This document shows, one piece after another, positions 4,823 to 52,947 of a DNA stretch of 64,000 nt (the stretch's first letter is position 1; the number at the start of each line of letters is the position of its first letter). This DNA comes from a virus (Duplodnaviria > Caudoviricetes), in the IMG/VR virus record IMGVR_UViG_3300033555_000001, positions 64,001-128,000 of that record, one strand, 5' to 3'. The notes beneath the pieces were generated by a model. It was not told the origin of the DNA, did not search any database, and was given only the letters and a program-made list of their open reading frames with translations. The position numbers and the translations under genes were made by a program.

Positions 4823-5350
4823 ATGAAAACACTCTTAGATAAAAGTAAATTCTTGTCCTTTTTGCTCAGGCATAAACCGCAGGTTGCAAAGCTCACTCTT
4901 GACCGTGAGGGCTGGTGCGCAATGTCTACAATTTCGCAGAATACTGACATCACGTTAGATGACTTACTTGAAATTACGCGGTCAGATGATAAAAAACGGT
5001 ATACTATTAAGGGCGATAAAATCCGCGCTAATCAAGGGCACAGTACGCCTCTAGTAGAACTTACTTTTGAAAAACGAGATCCTCCTGCAGTACTCTACCA
5101 CGGCACCACTCTTTCTTCCTGGAACGTTATTAAAACTGACGGCTTGAAGTCAATGAGCAGGCATATGGTGCATCTTACTGACGACCAAGAAATTGCAACT
5201 TCTGTTTCTGGGCGGCGCCGTGGAGGCCGTGTTATTGTTATTGTTGACGCAGCCGCCGCATCTGCAGCCGGATTAGAGTTCTTTGTTTCTGATAATGAGG
5301 TGTGGCTCGTAAAAGAAGTGCCGCCTCAATACATCAAAGGTGAAATTTAA
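4823..5350 (+). CDS. kptA: RNA 2'-phosphotransferase Tpt1/KptA
   Basis: SKFLSFLLRH, DDKKRY, IRANQGHS, LYHGT, SRHMVHL, DNEVWL. Confidence 0.95.
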   Translation: MKTLLDKSKFLSFLLRHKPQVAKLTLDREGWCAMSTISQNTDITLDDLLEITRSDDKKRYTIKGDKIRANQGHSTPLVELTFEKRDPPAVLYHGTTLSSWNVIKTDGLKSMSRHMVHLTDDQEIATSVSGRRRGGRVIVIVDAAAASAAGLEFFVSDNEVWLVKEVPPQYIKGEI

Positions 5351-6348
5351 TGGACCAGGCACTTGAGTATCTAATACCCGCGGTGGTGGTTTTTATAGTA
5401 ATGGGATCTTTGTTGTGGATAGACATTAAACTAATGTTTACTGCGTACAAAGAAACAGGTTGGGAAACTGATTTACAGGAACTGTACGGTAAAATCCTGG
5501 CCAATGGTGAGCTGCGGGCAGATCGCACTGGAACTGGTACTATTGCACTGTTTGGCGAGCGATTAGTAATTGATTTGCGACACGGCTTTCCGGCAGTGAC
5601 AACGAAAAAATTAGCGTTTAAGTCAATGGTGGCAGAGCTCCTGTGGTTTATTGAGGGCTCGGGAGATGAGCGCCGGCTGGCTGAAATTCAGTTTGGAACC
5701 AGAGATGAGGCCAAGCGAACAATTTGGTCCGACAACGCCAATGCCGAGTACTGGAAGTCGCGCGCAAAATTTAAGGGTGATCTTGGCCGGATATACGGCG
5801 TGCAGTGGAGACACTGGGCAACATACACCAGTTATGACACACTGTATCACCCACCGCTTTTTGTTGTTGGCGAGATTGATCAGCTTAAAGAATTGATCAA
5901 TAAACTAAAAACAAATCCTACTGATCGGCGCCTGATTTTGTCCGCTTGGAATGCTGGCGAGCTTGACAGCATGGCGCTGCCGCCCTGCCATATGTTTGCA
6001 CAATTTTACCTGAGCAATGATAACGAACTGTCATGCCAAATGTATCAGAGATCAGCGGACGTTGCACTCGGGATCCCTTTTAATATTGCCTCTTACGCGC
6101 TCTTAACACACATGATTGCCCATGTTATAGCAGCAGACGTTGGAACCCTTACCATGGTGTTGGGTGATGCGCATCTTTATTTGGATCATATTGAAGGAGT
6201 AAAGAAACAGCTTTCTAAAAAACTTTATGCGCCACCAATTTTAAATATTATTCGAAAAGTGGGTAATATTGACGATTTTAAAATGAGTGATTTTGAATTA
6301 TTGAACTATCAACATCATGCAGCAGTTGCTCTAAAAATGTCAATATAA
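5350..6348 (+). CDS. thyA: Thymidylate synthase with hydrophobic N-terminal extension
   Basis: DRTGTGT, RRLILSAWN, ALPPCH, YQRSADVALGIPFNIASY, GDAHLY; uninterrupted. Confidence 0.97.
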   Translation: MDQALEYLIPAVVVFIVMGSLLWIDIKLMFTAYKETGWETDLQELYGKILANGELRADRTGTGTIALFGERLVIDLRHGFPAVTTKKLAFKSMVAELLWFIEGSGDERRLAEIQFGTRDEAKRTIWSDNANAEYWKSRAKFKGDLGRIYGVQWRHWATYTSYDTLYHPPLFVVGEIDQLKELINKLKTNPTDRRLILSAWNAGELDSMALPPCHMFAQFYLSNDNELSCQMYQRSADVALGIPFNIASYALLTHMIAHVIAADVGTLTMVLGDAHLYLDHIEGVKKQLSKKLYAPPILNIIRKVGNIDDFKMSDFELLNYQHHAAVALKMSI

Positions 6349-6357
6349 GCAGACTAT

Positions 6358-7176
6358 ATGGAATCAGGAATCTATGCTATCCGAAATACAATAAACGGAA
6401 AACTGTATATTGGTAGTGCTAAGAATTTTCATAAACGAAAACTAGAGCATTTTAGACGGTTGAGAAAAAAAGAACATTTTAACATTAGATTGCAGAGAAG
6501 CGTTAACAAGCACGGAATAGGCAACTTTGAATTTATCATTCTGGAGCGCGCTGAATACAGCATGTTAATAAAAGACTTAGAAGACAGTTGGATTAATAAA
6601 CTAAACTCTAAAGCAAGTGGGTATAATATTGCTGACGCTACTTTTGGCGATATTTTATCGAGTCATCCAAATAAAGAAAATATTAAAAGGAAAATTTCGG
6701 CTGGACTCTTAAAATTATCAGCGTCAATGACTCCGGAACAAAGAAAAATAAAATATGGAAAATCTGGAGAATTAAACCCTATGTACGGACGCGCCATGCC
6801 GGATTACGTTAAAAGCGCGGCGGCTGAAGGAATTAAAAAATTTGTAGTCCAACACGGGCATGGCCCGACAAAAGGAATTAAGAAAACAACTGTTCATAGA
6901 GAAAAACTGTCAATTATAGCAAAAGCTAGGGTGGGTGAGTTAAATCCATTTTACGGCAGAAGGCATTCTGAAGAAGCTATTCAAAAAATGTCTGAAAGAG
7001 CAACCGGAAGAAGGTGTTCTACTTTAAGACCTGTAGTCGTCTATGGTATAATTTATGAGAGATTAATAGACGCAGAAAAGGCAACTGGAATTAAAGTTTG
7101 TACGCTGCATCATCGTGCGAAATCAAAAAATCCTAAATTCAACTATATCTATCATTTAGACAATCCAAAATCATGA
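6358..7176 (+). mobile_element. Free-standing GIY-YIG homing endonuclease (I-TevI/I-BmoI-like) with NUMOD3 repeats
   Basis: SGIYAIRNTINGKLYIGSA, GYNI, GELNPMYG and GELNPFYGRRHSEE repeats; AT-rich. Confidence 0.92.
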
Positions 7177-7670
7177 GTAAAATTTTCTATCGCTATATTC
7201 GCCCGGCAGTTTTTAATATTACTCGGGCTGAGCTTGAAACAAATCCTCGGGGCGGCATTTGCCTCAGATTTGAAAAGGGTGAAGGCGATTTGTTGTACTT
7301 TTCTCACTCACGCTGTGATGATTCTGAATTATTTTCAAAAGCGGTGGCTAAAAATATTGCAGACCGCCGTGCTATTGAAACTGCTGAGGATGAAAATAGG
7401 CCAACGGTGCAGGCTTCAAAGGACACGCGCGTACTTGTAGAACAAGTTATTGAGGCGTGTCAGCATTGTTGGGAGGTCTCGTCTCAGGCAACAGCTGTTT
7501 ATCGAAAGCTAGAGTCAAGAGAACTGGCAGCTGCGCTGGAAAAAATGATGCTAAAGAATTATGATGTTAAAGCTCGAGCACATATTTGGCGCGCGGGTAT
7601 TGCGGCCACAGGCACAGCAGCGTTCTATTCTAATTGTCAGAACAAAGGTTCTTATCTGTATGAGAGCTAA
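7173..7670 (+). CDS. Hypothetical protein
   Basis: ATGA overlap with the endonuclease stop. Confidence 0.7.
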   Translation: MSKIFYRYIRPAVFNITRAELETNPRGGICLRFEKGEGDLLYFSHSRCDDSELFSKAVAKNIADRRAIETAEDENRPTVQASKDTRVLVEQVIEACQHCWEVSSQATAVYRKLESRELAAALEKMMLKNYDVKARAHIWRAGIAATGTAAFYSNCQNKGSYLYES

Positions 7671-8169
7671 AACTTATACTGGAGACATTTTATCTGTAGA
7701 GTCAGGTGTTATTCTCCAGCAAGTAAATGCGCAGTGCGTGATGGGCTCCGGGGTTGCTAAGGCAATCAAAGCAAAATACCCAAGTGTTTTTGAAGAGTAT
7801 GTTGCTGACCTTGCACCATTACCTGCGCGGCAGCGGCTTGGCCGGCTAGTAATGGTGCAAGTAAATTCTGATTTACACGTTGGTAACTTAGTAGGACAAG
7901 AGTTCTATGGCCGCCAGGTGGTGGCTTATACCGCAGGCGGTCTAGGTACAACTAAGTACACATCGTACGATGCACTTGATAGCGCTCTACTTAAATTTAG
8001 ACGGTGGGCTCTAGGCCCCATCGGTATAAACGAGGCGGTGCACTACCCTCTTTTGGGAGCTGGCCTGGGTGGTGGGCACTGGCCAGTAATCAGAGAAATC
8101 CTAAATTGCAGACTAGACGGGCTTGAGCACCACCTGTGGTTGATGCCAGGGGTTGTAGAACCAGTGTAG
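7660..8169 (+). CDS. Macro domain protein (Poa1/TARG1/DarG-like ADP-ribose hydrolase)
   Basis: GDIL-QQVNAQCVMGSGVAKAIK, YPLLGAGLGGGHW; start moved to ATG 7660. Confidence 0.88.
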   Translation: MRAKTYTGDILSVESGVILQQVNAQCVMGSGVAKAIKAKYPSVFEEYVADLAPLPARQRLGRLVMVQVNSDLHVGNLVGQEFYGRQVVAYTAGGLGTTKYTSYDALDSALLKFRRWALGPIGINEAVHYPLLGAGLGGGHWPVIREILNCRLDGLEHHLWLMPGVVEPV

Positions 8170-8185
8170 CCCAGGTTCAGGTGGC

Positions 8186-8191
8186 TAAATA
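8186..8191 (+). promoter_or_regulatory. T4-like late promoter box TAAATA
   Basis: Intergenic gcTAAATAg, 25 nt before the next start. Confidence 0.75.
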
Positions 8192-8215
8192 GCGCTCTAT
8201 ACAACAATTCTACGT

Positions 8216-8977
8216 ATGCTTACATTCCGTCAATTCCTGCAAGAAACAACAATTGCTAGTTCTAGACTTGGTGCAAAATCCAATAAGGCTACAATGCGCA
8301 GAGTGCTGTCTAGAACTTTTTCAGCAGTGTTCTCAGAGATGGAACCGTATTTTGCGGATGCCACTCCACGCACGTTCAAGCGCGTGTACAATTCTTTTTT
8401 GGCCGAATTTCCGGGTGAGTGCGAAAAGATTGATTCGTACAAAAGCGATGGCGTTGGCCCGGGCGAGTTAATTGCTTATTTTATTTTTAACAATATCACT
8501 ATTGGCGGCGGATCTTCACCAATTGATTTGTTCTTAGACGGCGAGCCATTTGCTGAGGTAAAAGCCGGCGATGGCAGCGGCGACCGAGTTCAAGATTTTA
8601 AGCTTGATACCGAGCACTCTAAATCCTCTAAAATTCTGCTCAAGAACCTTGGGGACTTTAATGATGAGTACCGCCGGTTGACGGGCGAGGATCTGCCTAA
8701 TTGGAATGGGGCCGGAGATGCCGCCACTACTGCACTCCGACAGTGGCGAGGTGTTGATCTGGCAGCACTTGGTTCAGAGGATGATGATCTAAACACAATT
8801 GATGACATTGAGGACAACTGGGTCGCTGCAATTTTGGATGCCTACGTTCGAGATAAATACTTTATGCTTGTGAATCGAAAGACTCTACGAGTAAATTACT
8901 TTGGGCAGCTTGGTGTCGAGATGGTCGACTTGCTGCGCACCACCCGCGGTCAGCCAAAAGCCGCAGTTTCTCCATAG
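8216..8977 (+). CDS. Late protein with capsid-targeting-like leader and PD-(D/E)XK nuclease-like motif
   Basis: N-terminus MLTFRQFLQE; GVGPGE...PIDLFLDGEPFAEVK. Confidence 0.6.
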   Translation: MLTFRQFLQETTIASSRLGAKSNKATMRRVLSRTFSAVFSEMEPYFADATPRTFKRVYNSFLAEFPGECEKIDSYKSDGVGPGELIAYFIFNNITIGGGSSPIDLFLDGEPFAEVKAGDGSGDRVQDFKLDTEHSKSSKILLKNLGDFNDEYRRLTGEDLPNWNGAGDAATTALRQWRGVDLAALGSEDDDLNTIDDIEDNWVAAILDAYVRDKYFMLVNRKTLRVNYFGQLGVEMVDLLRTTRGQPKAAVSP

Positions 8978-8983
8978 GATAGT

Positions 8984-9160
8984 ATGGGCACTCATGTTGA
9001 TACCCGTGACACGCGTAAAAAAGTACGTGAACACGACGAGCTTGCACGTCGCAAGCGCGCGACCTTTAAGCAGTACCTCAGAAATATTGAGGAAGACTTG
9101 CTTGAAGATGATTTAGGGGAAATACAGGAAGAAGATCAGGACGCTGACGGCGAAGAATAA
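8984..9160 (+). CDS. Small acidic-tailed protein (58 aa, not in the ORF track)
   Basis: MGTHVDTRDTRKKVREHDELARRKRATFKQYLRNIEEDLL...; AGGA upstream; fills the gap. Confidence 0.7.
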   Translation: MGTHVDTRDTRKKVREHDELARRKRATFKQYLRNIEEDLLEDDLGEIQEEDQDADGEE

Positions 9161-9181
9161 TGTTTCACCGTGTGTGAAGGC

Positions 9182-9187
9182 TAAATA
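9182..9187 (+). promoter_or_regulatory. Late promoter box TAAATA
   Basis: Intergenic gcTAAATAg followed by GAGG RBS. Confidence 0.75.
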
Positions 9188-49224: not shown

Positions 49225-49952
49225 AATTAACGACCGAAGATAATCGCAAGCTACGAGCGGCCATTGCGGCGTGTAAGCTCGCTGATATTGATCTGGCCGT
49301 GATTGCTGAAGGCAAGATCCGCGGGCTGAGCGAAAGCAGAAATGCCGTGATCTTTAGCGATCTTGTACTCTCTATTGACCCTGAGATTCAGCTTGGAATT
49401 ACACGACTTTCAGAACTGGACAAACGGCTCGCCTTGTTTGGTGATGACATTCTTGTTGAGGGTGACCTCACAGACGCCAAGAAAGTCCGCAAGCTAGCCA
49501 TTCGCGGCAAAGCCGGTAAGATTGAATTTCGCTGTACTGACGTTGCAATGCTTGACAAAAAGTACCCGAAAGAAAATCACGATGTGCCAGGCACAGTGAT
49601 CACGTTTAGCAAAGCTGAAATAGCTCTTATTTCGCGCGGTGTAAAAACGCTGGGCGCTGAACAGCTTACCATTCAAGTAAAGCGTGATGGTGCCGTACAT
49701 ATTGAAAGTTTAGATACTTCAAACGACAGATTTGAAACTGATTTAGTAACAAACGCGGACTTTATCGATGATGCAGTATCCTCAGTGTTCTCGTATAATT
49801 CTTCAAGCTCTGGTGTTTTGCTAGGACTGCTGGAGCACACGGTAAAAGATGCTGAGAGTTCGCAAATCATACTCATGAAATCAGGCAACATTGGCGTAAC
49901 AGTTTTTGGATTTGATATTATTGCTATTCCACGTATTATTACAGGAGTTTAA
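49221..49952 (+). CDS. Possible sliding clamp (gp45-like)
   Basis: About 240 aa two-domain alpha/beta pattern, MKLT start, next to the polymerase. Confidence 0.45.
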   Translation: MKLTTEDNRKLRAAIAACKLADIDLAVIAEGKIRGLSESRNAVIFSDLVLSIDPEIQLGITRLSELDKRLALFGDDILVEGDLTDAKKVRKLAIRGKAGKIEFRCTDVAMLDKKYPKENHDVPGTVITFSKAEIALISRGVKTLGAEQLTIQVKRDGAVHIESLDTSNDRFETDLVTNADFIDDAVSSVFSYNSSSSGVLLGLLEHTVKDAESSQIILMKSGNIGVTVFGFDIIAIPRIITGV

Positions 49953-49953
49953 A

Positions 49954-50322
49954 TTGGACAACTACGACATCGAAAAAACGCGCGTGGACTATGTGCAGAC
50001 TATGGAAATCCAGGTGCGGCACCTACAGACTGAGCTTGACAAATATAAAGCAATTGCTGAAAAATGGGAACCGCGCTTTACAGCCCAGAGTGATGCTGCG
50101 ACACAGATGCTTGCTATTGGGCTTGAGTTTGGCGGCAAACGTGCTAATGTAAAAGTCAGTGAAAACTTTCTGCATCAAATGGACGCTACTGGAGCCACCA
50201 GCGAGCTGCTGCACGCGCTGATTAACGGACTTGTTAAAGACCAACTGCACGCTGTCCTTAAACCAATAGTTGAGCGCGCGCAAAAGAATGTTAACAGCGT
50301 GGGTGGTGCTGGACAATGGTAA
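49954..50322 (+). CDS. Hypothetical protein
   Basis: TTG start after AGGAG. Confidence 0.7.
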   Translation: MDNYDIEKTRVDYVQTMEIQVRHLQTELDKYKAIAEKWEPRFTAQSDAATQMLAIGLEFGGKRANVKVSENFLHQMDATGATSELLHALINGLVKDQLHAVLKPIVERAQKNVNSVGGAGQW

Positions 50323-50690
50323 GCTGGTTTAAAAAGCTGCTGGCCAGGGGCTCCAGGAAATCTAATTTTCTGGATCCAGATGGCGGACTTGCTTTGCGCG
50401 AAAAATTCTTAGAGGCCCAGGTAAAGACCACTGAGCCGTGGGCCATGTTTGAAGTTGCTGGCTTTGACGAAAAAGAAGAGCGCATAAAGATGGTGTTCAA
50501 TTGGAACAGCGCTTTTATTGAACACCTAAATGGCATGGGCTTTACTGGCGAAACTGAAGACGATACAGTGCAAGCGTTCTTCTTTACAAGTCAAATGGCG
50601 CCTGCAGGTTCAGATCCTGACGGTGACGAATCTGTTCAAGTTGAAGACTTGCCTAATTTGTCAAACCGAGTAAACAAGGTTTCCAGATAA
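50316..50690 (+). CDS. Conserved hypothetical phage protein
   Basis: EPWA...FNWNSAFIEHL-GF-GETEDD pattern. Confidence 0.75.
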   Translation: MVSWFKKLLARGSRKSNFLDPDGGLALREKFLEAQVKTTEPWAMFEVAGFDEKEERIKMVFNWNSAFIEHLNGMGFTGETEDDTVQAFFFTSQMAPAGSDPDGDESVQVEDLPNLSNRVNKVSR

Positions 50691-50726
50691 CTGTGGTATA
50701 ATGCAGATTGACCAACCGGGTAAATT

Positions 50727-51788
50727 ATGAAACAAAAACGCTTAGTGGTTGACGTATCAAATATCTTTTGGCGGGCGGTATCGGCTCTACAGCGGTACGG
50801 TCCCGTTGACACCGCTGATTCTGCCGGACTAGGCTTGCATGGTTGCCTGATGTCGCTTAAAAAGCACTACAATAATATCAAACCGCATAAGCTAGCAATA
50901 GTGTTTGAGGGCAAACAAAACTGGCGCAAAGAGTATACAAAGAGCGCAGCGTGCGTTTCCAGGCGCCTCTACAAGGGTAACAGGGTTGCGGATCCTAGTA
51001 TGGCAGTGCTCTTTGATGTGATGCGATCTTTTGAAGATTTGGCACGTAACCACACTAACATTGTAACGCTGGTTCATCCACGCCTGGAGGGTGATGATCT
51101 AATTGGCGGGTACGCGGATTATTTCGCTAGCCCGCACGACGGTTCCTCGGATGGCGACGAAGTGTTTATACTGTCAGGTGACAAGGACTTTGTGCAGTTA
51201 CTTGGCAATCCAAATATTCACCTTGTAAACCCAGACGACGGGCTAGAGCGCACGCTGACTAAAGTATGCGATGTTGATGACGCCGGATATTTTATGTTTG
51301 AGAAATGTTTCCGAGGAGATTCAGGCGATAACGTACTGCCTGCGCTGCCGCGCGTCCGCAAAACAAAACTGCACAAGGCGTACGGCGTTAAAGATGGCAA
51401 GGTTGATGCGTCACTGGCGGACTCATTTGAAATGAGTAATTTGCTAAATTCTACGTGGGAGTTCATGGATCCGGAGACTGGCGACAAGCGCATGATGTCA
51501 GTTGCTGAGATGTACGAAGAAAATAGTCTGTTAATGAACTTGCGCGGCCAGCCACAGGAAATCAGAGACCTGATCAAAGAAGTAATTGAGCACGAGAGCG
51601 ACAATCACGGCCAGTTTAACTTTTTTAACTTTTCAAAATTTCTGGGCAAATACAAGCTACAGCAAATTGCTGATAAATCAGCGGACTTTGTTCCAATGCT
51701 CAGTGGCAAGGGATTTAAAATGGCCGCAACACCGACCGCCGAACCTGTTGCTGACGAGCAGCCAGCACTTGGAGGTCTGCAATTTTAA
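50727..51788 (+). CDS. rnh: RNase H / 5'-3' exonuclease (T4 Rnh-like)
   Basis: VVDVSNI, FEG, R-YKGNR, EGDDLI, SGDKDFVQL, GDSGDNV. Confidence 0.92.
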   Translation: MKQKRLVVDVSNIFWRAVSALQRYGPVDTADSAGLGLHGCLMSLKKHYNNIKPHKLAIVFEGKQNWRKEYTKSAACVSRRLYKGNRVADPSMAVLFDVMRSFEDLARNHTNIVTLVHPRLEGDDLIGGYADYFASPHDGSSDGDEVFILSGDKDFVQLLGNPNIHLVNPDDGLERTLTKVCDVDDAGYFMFEKCFRGDSGDNVLPALPRVRKTKLHKAYGVKDGKVDASLADSFEMSNLLNSTWEFMDPETGDKRMMSVAEMYEENSLLMNLRGQPQEIRDLIKEVIEHESDNHGQFNFFNFSKFLGKYKLQQIADKSADFVPMLSGKGFKMAATPTAEPVADEQPALGGLQF

Positions 51789-51861
51789 AACTCAGGGTTA
51801 GCCACTGGTTAAGGGCTCTAATAACCGGTATATAATAGCTTATCATCAACCGGAGACCGTA

Positions 51862-52947
51862 ATGTCGTACATGATTAAGATCGCGCTGTTTTTATTAGCA
51901 TGTACGGCAGCTGTACTATTTGCGGGTTATAAATCTTTTGCTGTATCTTACTTTGATCATTCCCCAAACTGGGGAACCGTGGTCAGAGTCCAACAAGAGG
52001 CCGACCGGTCGGCGGTGGTTGTTTCTGTAAAAAAGACCGCTGAAAAACAGATTGAAGTTCTTACTGACGAAGTTAACGGGTTACTCAAAAAAAGTGCCAT
52101 GTACGTGGCACATGAGAAATCACTGTACCTCTTGTTATTCACTGCAGTAATTACGCTTGAAGAACAGTCAGCTCTATCAACCGCAGCACTTGCTAAATTT
52201 GGCCCGCTTACAACTCTTTACCTAAAAGACTTTACTGGCACTGATGTTGCAAGTAACGCGGTCTCACAGTTTGAAAGCACAATTGTTGGTGAAGCACTCT
52301 CTGAGCGCTCGCAGGCGTCTGAGCTGCGAATGAACTTTAGAGCAGTTGTAGATTTTAGAACTGAGTTTCTAGAAAAGATAAACGCCAAACACGCGCAAGA
52401 CTTTGCTGGAGAAGTAGAGCTGTTTACTGCTGCCCAGCCGCCGGTGAGTGATCAGTATAATCAGTACGACCCAAGTACCATGACATTTGCGCCCTTTGAA
52501 CAGATGCGGCACCGGGGCTGGGATGTCAGTGATGAGGATGCGCATCTCCTGTACAATGCGCACAAACTAATAAGTGACATAGACACAGTACAAACCAGGC
52601 TGGCCACTGCTACAGCCAGTGCCGCGCAAAAACTAATTTTAATCTCTGAGTACCGGGCGCAGCTCGCGGACTCAACTGAGAGCGGTGGAGTAAAAGCGCT
52701 GCTGTTCATGCAGAACAAATCAAGAGGTGTAGTTAAAGAGGGTGATAAGCTGTACCGCTGTACACTAGGAGTGTTCAGGTGCACACCAGTAGCAGAAGTT
52801 AAAGTGCTCTTTGACGATGTGTTTTCAACACCACACCCAACCAGCGGTAAAGTCGTGCCAGGTTTTTTGATTAAAATTGAATTTTTTAACCGGGCAAACA
52901 GCGGACCCGGCCAGTTGTACCTTTTGCCGCCAACATTAAAGAGGTGA
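51862..52947 (+). CDS. Signal-anchored coiled-coil protein
   Basis: N-terminal hydrophobic segment; helical middle; beta C-terminus. Confidence 0.75.
   Translation: MSYMIKIALFLLACTAAVLFAGYKSFAVSYFDHSPNWGTVVRVQQEADRSAVVVSVKKTAEKQIEVLTDEVNGLLKKSAMYVAHEKSLYLLLFTAVITLEEQSALSTAALAKFGPLTTLYLKDFTGTDVASNAVSQFESTIVGEALSERSQASELRMNFRAVVDFRTEFLEKINAKHAQDFAGEVELFTAAQPPVSDQYNQYDPSTMTFAPFEQMRHRGWDVSDEDAHLLYNAHKLISDIDTVQTRLATATASAAQKLILISEYRAQLADSTESGGVKALLFMQNKSRGVVKEGDKLYRCTLGVFRCTPVAEVKVLFDDVFSTPHPTSGKVVPGFLIKIEFFNRANSGPGQLYLLPPTLKR

Follow-up and report, generated by a model that had tools for sequence, protein, structure and literature searches.

The gene studied here encodes a 253-amino-acid (aa) precursor (P0001) and is located at positions 8216–8977 (+ strand; ATG at 8216, stop codon at 8975–8977) of a 64,000-nucleotide stretch of DNA, hereafter the window, which corresponds to bases 64001–128000 of the IMG/VR virus record IMGVR_UViG_3300033555_000001. 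This record (310,728 bp, 45% G+C, estimated to be ~87% complete) belongs to an uncultivated jumbo phage of the T4 superfamily of ~311 kb. The predicted protein consists of a short leader followed by a PD-(D/E)XK-type body. We give a slightly better than even chance to its being the late-expressed precursor of a divergent PD-(D/E)XK nuclease that would be targeted to the capsid, cleaved, packaged and injected. An equivalent interpretation had been advanced in a preliminary description of this DNA, and every part of it that is open to computation came out in its favour.

Leader peptide and late promoter

The leader, MLTFRQFLQE (M1–E10, positions 8216–8245, + strand), is a predicted capsid-targeting propeptide with a predicted cut after E10. 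It had been compared earlier with MKTYQEFIAE, the leader of the T4 internal proteins (PMC8442874), and this sequence was found at the N-termini of IPIII and IPII in the T4 record AF158101. In T4 the ten N-terminal residues are enough for packaging; residues 4 and 7 are the main determinants of targeting, processing depends on residues 8 and 10, and the prohead protease gp21 cuts after L/I-x-E (PMC9026906). The likeness to the T4 capsid-targeting sequence (CTS) held at these mapped residues, 4, 7, 8 and 10, and L8-Q9-E10 constitutes an L/I-x-E site. In the AlphaFold2 model of the protein the leader forms a helix (residues 4–11) with a lower predicted local distance difference test score (pLDDT, 74–77).

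A six-frame scan of the 310,728-bp genome with the pattern M-x-[TS]-F-x-[QED]-[FY]-[LI]-x-E gave six occurrences, at genome positions 36499, 72216 (the nuclease gene), 200788, 202950, 215890 and 222668. All six were placed directly after the start codon of an open reading frame (ORF) of 144–525 aa; there were no internal occurrences, and 20 codon-block shuffles of the genome gave none. As the pattern was itself derived from these six ORFs, this N-terminal exclusivity is the telling point. The leader stands on six mutually unrelated bodies, namely the nuclease, an Amidoligase_2 protein, an HD + AAA_33/polynucleotide-kinase-like protein and three proteins of no assigned function. Codon choice differs among the six copies, which argues that selection acts on the leader peptide. 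A further search with a degenerate DNA pattern of the leader identified 10 more leader-bearing ORFs, of 168–323 aa, in the related records G001, G003 and G004, and none with the reversed pattern used as control. Positions left free by the pattern still converged in these ORFs (I2 in 8/10, K5 in 10/10). The 26 leaders collected from this phage, its relatives and the family homologues gave the consensus M-I-T-F-K-Q-F-L-x-E, in which position 3 is T or S, F4 is found in 25/26, position 7 is always F or Y, position 8 is always L or I, E10 is present in 26/26 and position 9 is free. All four positions mapped in T4 are among the constrained ones. The five other leader ORFs of this genome are the loci L003–L007, in which the Amidoligase_2 protein has 525 aa and the HD + AAA_33/polynucleotide-kinase-like protein 375 aa. 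Two of the five have leader-bearing counterparts in related phages (L021, L020), with N-terminal regions that are similar by eye.

The genome also encodes the head machinery in which such a leader would act. It contains genes for a gp21-type prohead protease of the Peptidase_S77 family (PF03420, 81.5 bits; genome 178427–179041, minus strand) and for a Gp23 capsid protein (PF07068, 303.6 bits), the N-terminal region of which has three L-x-E sites. The two genes are separated by a 180-aa ORF and by an acidic ORF of 295 aa with 12 [LI]xE sites, the latter being scaffold-like in its position and composition. The Peptidase_S77 protease is also encoded in the related records G003, G004 and G005.

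Upstream of the gene, a T4-late-type CTAAATA box is present at 8185–8191 (TAAATA 8186–8191, + strand), 31 nt 5' of the ATG, where the preliminary description had placed a late TAAATA box. The T4 late −10 element is TATAAATA. Taking the first start codon of ORFs of at least 60 aa, 17 of the 48 genomic copies of CTAAATA have an ORF start 26–37 nt downstream, against ~2% expected from the ORF-start density (~18-fold enrichment), and three control heptamers had 0–1 copies at this spacing. Genes driven by the box include those for an endolysin and a tail-fibre protein, together with the 160-aa ORF that opens the tail-fibre block. The box of this last ORF (9181–9187, + strand, 31 nt before it) is the next one after that of the nuclease gene and marks the end of the neighbourhood of the transcription unit, and its orthologue in L014 and L016 has (C/A)TAAATA at the same spacing. 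CTAAATA behaves as a T4-type late promoter, and late expression of the nuclease gene is predicted from this motif.

Among ORFs of at least 100 aa, [LI]xE within residues 3–13 was found in 11 of the 17 CTAAATA-driven ORFs and in 55 of 432 others, a comparison set that includes spurious ORFs (odds ratio 12.6, Fisher p = 2e-6). This enrichment suggests that other types of leader exist and that more late proteins are processed. Short N-termini ending in [LI]-x-E after CTAAATA are, for example, MKLSEIIGE, MILKQLLQITE, MKLSDLKPIFE and MLTDGLTLIE, and ORFs of this kind are located, among other places, at genome positions 210934, 187935, 187412, 49571–51877 and 8688. At 188301 and 187904 (minus strand), two adjacent genes have near-identical promoter and leader DNA (GATCATAGAGGGCTAAATA[C/T]CTGATCTTACAGG), as if a late-promoter cassette had been duplicated locally.

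The leader is missing from the public gene call (P0002, 227 aa) and from the ESM Atlas record, both of which start at M27 (ATG at 8294–8296, + strand). We judged this start to be too far downstream. Residues 1–26 are conserved as protein in the homologues P0003, P0004, P0006 and P0015, and K24 is near-invariant in the 48 homologues aligned, which argues for M1 as the true start. The distance of 31 nt between promoter and ATG also suits M1 and agrees with that of 16 other genes of the phage.

Syntenic orthologues of the gene were located in G003 (257 kb), G004 (350 kb, 97% complete) and G005, in all cases after the Macro gene and before an acidic ORF and an ORF beginning ML(V/I)VPLKGD. In these three the first possible start gives a leaderless protein (MSIGFNPQ..., MVSFNPQF... 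and MSLILDTS...), and no TAAATA was found upstream. Even so, both elements are in use elsewhere in G003 and G004, the leader on other genes and the TAAATA box before the next gene. The leader-bearing family members on L012 and L013 are preceded by GTAAATAG and ATAAATAT, respectively, that is, by (G/A)TAAATA 26–27 nt before the ATG. Leader and late box therefore go together, in 3/3 leader-bearing members versus 0/3 distinct leaderless loci, a small sample. Since the leaderless proteins begin a few residues past the point at which the leader ends, the tag is a clean N-terminal add-on of 10–13 residues. A maximum-likelihood tree of 53 members placed P0001 in a fully supported three-member clade, all of them leader-bearing, and the three syntenic orthologues in a 15-member clade that is entirely leaderless. 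The well-supported branches force at least three gains or losses of the leader, a count in which some leaderless database entries may be shortened gene calls, as in this genome.

The nuclease-like body

The predicted mature protein, T11–P253 (8246–8974, + strand), has 243 aa, a mass of 26.9 kDa and an isoelectric point (pI) of 4.86. The restriction-like PD-(D/E)XK pattern that had been read in it is formed by two segments. The first is GVGPGE (residues 79–84, positions 8450–8467, + strand), in which G81 and E84 are invariant and E84 opens a helix (84–90). The second is PIDLFLDGEPFAEVK (residues 102–116, positions 8519–8563, + strand), in which D104 precedes a strand (105–107) and E114-x-K116 lies within another (110–121). 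In an alignment of 48 homologues, with 20–65% identity to the query, the invariant columns were limited to G81, E84, D104, E114 and K116, so that the pattern was confirmed both by conservation and by its position on the right secondary-structure elements.

The AlphaFold2 model of the whole protein had a pLDDT of 94.3 and a predicted template-modelling score of 0.88, and a model of residues 76–253 had a pLDDT of 96.0. According to DSSP the elements run helix (E84), strand, strand (D104), strand (E-x-K), long helix and then more strands, as is canonical for PD-(D/E)XK. When the core model was compared by VIA-align with 48,161 PDB representative chains, the first eight were all PD-(D/E)XK nucleases with Z of 3.6–4.3, namely HhaI, I-Ssp6803I, NhoI, a Holliday-junction resolving enzyme (1ob8), HinP1I, MspI, Eco15I and PvuII, with 3ndh, Hjc and DpnI further down. 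The best match of the full model was 3ndh, which we take to be ThaI (Z 4.4, 134 residues, 3.8 Å), and restriction enzymes plus MutH made up 11 of its first 36 rows. The structure rows of the ESM Atlas were PDDEXK_5, DpnI, PDDEXK_14 and PDDEXK_16, with template-modelling (TM) scores by row of 0.51–0.57. On motif and topology, the protein was filed as a divergent PD-(D/E)XK-type protein.

The homologues fall into 49 representative clusters, none of which carries a functional name from any source, and those with an origin that was examined are viral or metagenomic contigs. A Pfam scan of all 48 aligned homologues gave scattered single weak matches, with a faint DUF559 in 1/48 (E = 0.008). No match was obtained by megablast and tblastn against 50,697 phage records, T4 included, and a PDB profile search by sequence gave chance-level matches to CBF3 and nothing relevant. 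Foldseek returned uncharacterised viral proteins only from BFVD and unnamed relatives only from the AFDB clusters.

Two known contexts for nucleases of this kind were considered and ruled out. A type II restriction-modification system was rejected because no DNA methyltransferase is adjacent: in the window the gene is flanked by that for the Macro-domain protein and by an acidic ORF of 58 aa, and the gene that follows in L009 encodes a Methyltransf_24 protein, which was not identified as a DNA methyltransferase. A homing endonuclease was rejected on the ground that several phages have the gene at a single, syntenic position.

Proposed mechanism and competing readings

From the leader, the promoter and the head genes we infer the following course of events. 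The precursor would be synthesized late, and its leader would bind it to the scaffolding core during prohead assembly. The gp21-type prohead protease would then cut after E10 (L-Q-E), and the 27-kDa mature enzyme would stay in the head with the DNA and enter the next host together with it. Once injected, the enzyme would cut nucleic acid ahead of any phage gene expression; candidate targets are the DNA of the host, a plasmid or prophage resident there, or a defence element. The DNA of the phage itself is probably guarded by base modification. Its genome has a second, divergent thymidylate-synthase-family gene (genome 39404–40429; L030 1429–2454) and a homologue of the T4 beta-glucosyltransferase (phrog_7922, E = 2.7e-50; genome 45652–46803; L028 1501–2652), and the presence of both makes sugar-modified hydroxymethyl pyrimidines plausible. 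T4 itself withstands fusions to staphylococcal nuclease and EcoRI inside its head (PMC3012670, PMC9026906). The anti-defence role proposed earlier for the injected protein is a guess.

Several observations weigh against this mechanism. The phage is known from a metagenomic contig alone. Scans of the protein with Pfam, PHROGs, NCBIfam and PADLOC gave no match, so that no nuclease-family profile hidden Markov model (HMM) recognizes it. The order of the motif on the model and the top-ranking PD-(D/E)XK structures speak for the nuclease fold proposed earlier, but the structural similarity is weak in absolute terms (Z of at most 4.4, while unrelated models typically get 7–8), and Foldseek searches of PDB with the full and core models gave no match at E ≤ 0.001, the best E being 0.09. 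An active DNA nuclease placed beside the genome requires a protection mechanism, and the sugar modification that would provide it is a plausible one. The mature protein is acidic, as opposed to the highly basic internal proteins of T4 (PMC8442874). The close orthologues function without leader, so packaging is not intrinsic to the function of the family. No clear Shine-Dalgarno sequence was found before M1, and an AAGG is located 7–10 nt before the ATG of M27. Finally, the gene order Tpt1-ThyA-x-Macro-family is common to the window and the locus L010 of a distant relative, where an Rnl1-type RNA ligase is located further downstream. Together with an apparent fusion of a similar fold to RNA ligase in the ESM Atlas, this context hints at RNA or ADP-ribose-linked substrates, not host DNA.

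This last hint leads to an alternative that we consider unlikely, and still the least unlikely of those weighed: a repair or processing nuclease working with the products of the neighbouring Tpt1, Macro and RNA-ligase genes, the substrates of which would be RNA ends or ADP-ribosylated nucleic acid and not the DNA of the host. Such an enzyme could undo host tRNA cleavage or DarT-type DNA ADP-ribosylation, and it might still be packaged. The gene order just named is found in both the window and L010, with ~31% identity between the proteins; Macro and family genes overlap by 4 nt in L010, where the T4 Rnl1-type RNA ligase is encoded three genes downstream. The Macro protein of the window has a partial DarG match (E = 1.8e-10), and another of the leader-bearing ORFs is the HD + polynucleotide-kinase-like protein. 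In the Atlas, a cluster of 875-aa viral proteins with an RNA_ligase domain (PF09414) matches the whole model with a TM score by query of 0.60 over 229 residues, and other phages may have this fold joined to an RNA ligase; the match is, however, a structural lead with neither alignment nor E-value. The whole block to which these genes belong is colinear in the related phages, so that the synteny may reflect inherited gene order only, and the closest homologue, P0003, is located in a different neighbourhood. Moreover, the best structural matches of the protein are DNA endonucleases.

Somewhat less probable again is a late nuclease that remains in the cytoplasm, acting only in the infected cell in host DNA breakdown or in DNA processing before packaging, with the leader serving as a translation-initiation or stability element or as a tag for another late assembly. 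The leaderless orthologues, which show that the body works without the tag, would agree with this, as would the acidity of the mature protein. However, the leaders are conserved at protein level despite their differing codons, they match the positions mapped experimentally in T4 and end in a protease motif for which the matching protease is encoded, and leader and late promoter occur jointly in the three leader-bearing members checked and in none of the three distinct leaderless loci.

We assign little probability to a packaged but catalytically inactive nuclease-fold protein that would bind or inhibit a host defence factor or serve as a decoy for it, comparable in this to T4 IPI*. An acidic pI is compatible with a nucleic-acid mimic, and the known packaged counter-defence protein of T4 is an inhibitor and not an enzyme (PMC3012670); against this, the sole invariant residues in the 48 homologues are the metal-binding or catalytic set E, D and E-x-K plus G81, as is expected for an active enzyme under selection. 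Translation from M27 with an untranslated leader region, which would suit the AAGG, the absence of a clear Shine-Dalgarno sequence at M1, the automatic gene call and the Atlas record, is very improbable given the protein-level conservation of residues 1–26 in four relatives, the near-invariance of K24 and the promoter spacing.

Genomic neighbourhood and relation to known systems

The gene is preceded by the genes for topoisomerase II, two related ORFs (both PHROG 14336), a 185-aa ORF, Tpt1, canonical ThyA, an inserted ORF, a 165-aa ORF and the Macro-domain protein, and is followed by the 58-aa acidic ORF, the CTAAATA box at 9181 and the tail-fibre block. The related phages are colinear over this block, from topoisomerase II through the genes for the tail fibre. 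The order Tpt1 (RNA 2'-phosphotransferase)-ThyA-small ORF-Macro is kept between window positions 4823–8169 and L010 3443–5724, and may represent an RNA-repair or ADP-ribose-processing module. As listed, the 165-aa ORF (7173–7670) and the Macro ORF (7561–8169), both on the + strand, have 110 nt in common. Translation of the Macro ORF probably begins at an internal ATG, given that its PHROG match starts only at residue 23. The inserted ORF between thyA and the 165-aa ORF (6358–7176, + strand, 272 aa) has by eye a GIY...YIG-like N-terminus and, judged by this sequence, is likely to be an inserted homing endonuclease; it has no counterpart in L010 at that place. The thymidylate synthase (5350–6348, + strand) has an extra, strongly hydrophobic N-terminus of ~40 residues (IPAVVVFIVMGSLLWI...), with the family match beginning at residue 42, which would be either an unusual membrane anchor or the result of a miscalled start codon. 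This ThyA was ruled out as a DNA-modifying enzyme because it scores above the TIGR03284 cut-off for canonical thymidylate synthase.

The 58-aa ORF (8984–9160, + strand) adjoins the nuclease gene and has a basic N-terminal half, a very acidic C-terminal half and an internal leader-like motif, ATFKQYLRNIEE. An ORF of 55–65 aa follows the family gene at −8 to +27 nt in six phages: in the window and, as counterparts, in L010 (6625–6816), L012 (10969–11163), L014 (10863–11030), L016 (10822–11019) and L017 (10860–11036). The leader-like motif reads VTFKNYIRE and VTFKNYLRE in the small ORFs of the relatives. No ORF of this type was present after the family gene in L009 and L013. Prediction of a complex between the mature protein and the 58-aa ORF gave a score of 0.00, which speaks neither for nor against binding. 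This ORF could encode a precursor of acidic internal peptides, for which gp67 of T4 is a precedent, or a partner of the nuclease.

The predicted system shares with T4 IPI, IPII, IPIII and Alt a ten-residue leader with T3, aromatic residues at positions 4 and 7, I or L at position 8, E10 and an L/I-x-E end. As in T4, the leader is common to otherwise unrelated proteins, and it is accompanied by a gp21-type protease, a gp23-type capsid protein, a scaffold-like protein and a late TAAATA-type promoter. It differs from T4 in the 27-kDa, acidic, enzyme-like body in place of small basic proteins and in the consensus, MITFKQFLxE versus MKTYQEFIAE, and it is known here from genes alone. No homology of the body to IPI, IPII, IPIII or Alt was found with PHROG, Pfam or tblastn of the 50,697 phage records that include T4. 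Such homology is not needed for the mechanism, as the internal proteins of T4 are themselves mutually unrelated (PMC9026906) and those found in T-even phages form a varied set with only the CTS in common (PMC3012670). All the computable traits of T4 CTS cargo were thus found except homology of the body, and on sequence grounds the mechanism is that of T4 CTS cargo, with a predicted cargo that is new and unannotated.

Fusions of the T4 CTS or IPIII to staphylococcal nuclease and EcoRI were packaged in the head and delivered (PMC3012670, PMC9026906). The arrangement predicted here resembles these constructs in having a CTS before a DNA nuclease; in the T4 constructs the nuclease lies beside modified phage DNA and here the modification is predicted. 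Unlike them, it is apparently natural, and leaderless orthologues are present in related phages at the corresponding place in the genome. Searches of the literature for nucleases that naturally carry a CTS in T4-like phages gave reviews and engineering papers only. With the PD-(D/E)XK enzymes (HhaI, HinP1I, MspI, NhoI, PvuII, DpnI, 3ndh, I-Ssp6803I and Hjc-type resolvases) the body has in common E...D...E-x-K on a helix, strand 2 and strand 3 and a D-to-E spacing of 10. It is set apart from the solved enzymes by Z of 3.2–4.4, identity of 9–17% and lack of an HMM match, and family-specific traits are an N-terminal helical domain (24–74), a long helical insertion (136–211) and, at the C-terminus, a conserved R-x-x-R-G-Q-P motif for which no known family was found. 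In phiKZ-like and SPN3US-like phages, ejection proteins are cut by a diverged gp21 homologue after S/A-x-E (PMC9026906, PMC7411985). Processing after Glu of many head-packaged proteins (here predicted) by a gp21-family protease is common to those giants and this phage. Their propeptides are longer, with another motif and no T4-type decapeptide, whereas this phage keeps the T4-type leader and L/I-x-E.

The known natural CTS cargo of T4 amounts to a handful of small proteins and Alt. In this phage the tag is found on a nuclease-like protein and five others, and in related jumbo phages on many more proteins. Automatic gene calling stripped this leader, and the number of such tags known from databases is probably too low. 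The body itself would represent a nuclease family without annotation anywhere. Tagged and untagged orthologues at one genome position provide natural controls, by which the recruitment of cargo becomes directly testable. More speculatively, and with the balance of our judgement against it, jumbo phages of the T4 superfamily may recruit cytoplasmic enzymes into an injected arsenal by adding a late promoter and a ten-residue leader in place, a process that would be captured here as the tagged and untagged forms of one nuclease. This protein might then be the first natural virion-borne active restriction-like endonuclease held beside a modified genome, fired ahead of gene expression against host, plasmid or rival-phage DNA. 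If these proteins are packaged, such phages would deliver a ready-made set of enzymes together with their DNA, which bears on how host defences are beaten in the first seconds of infection.

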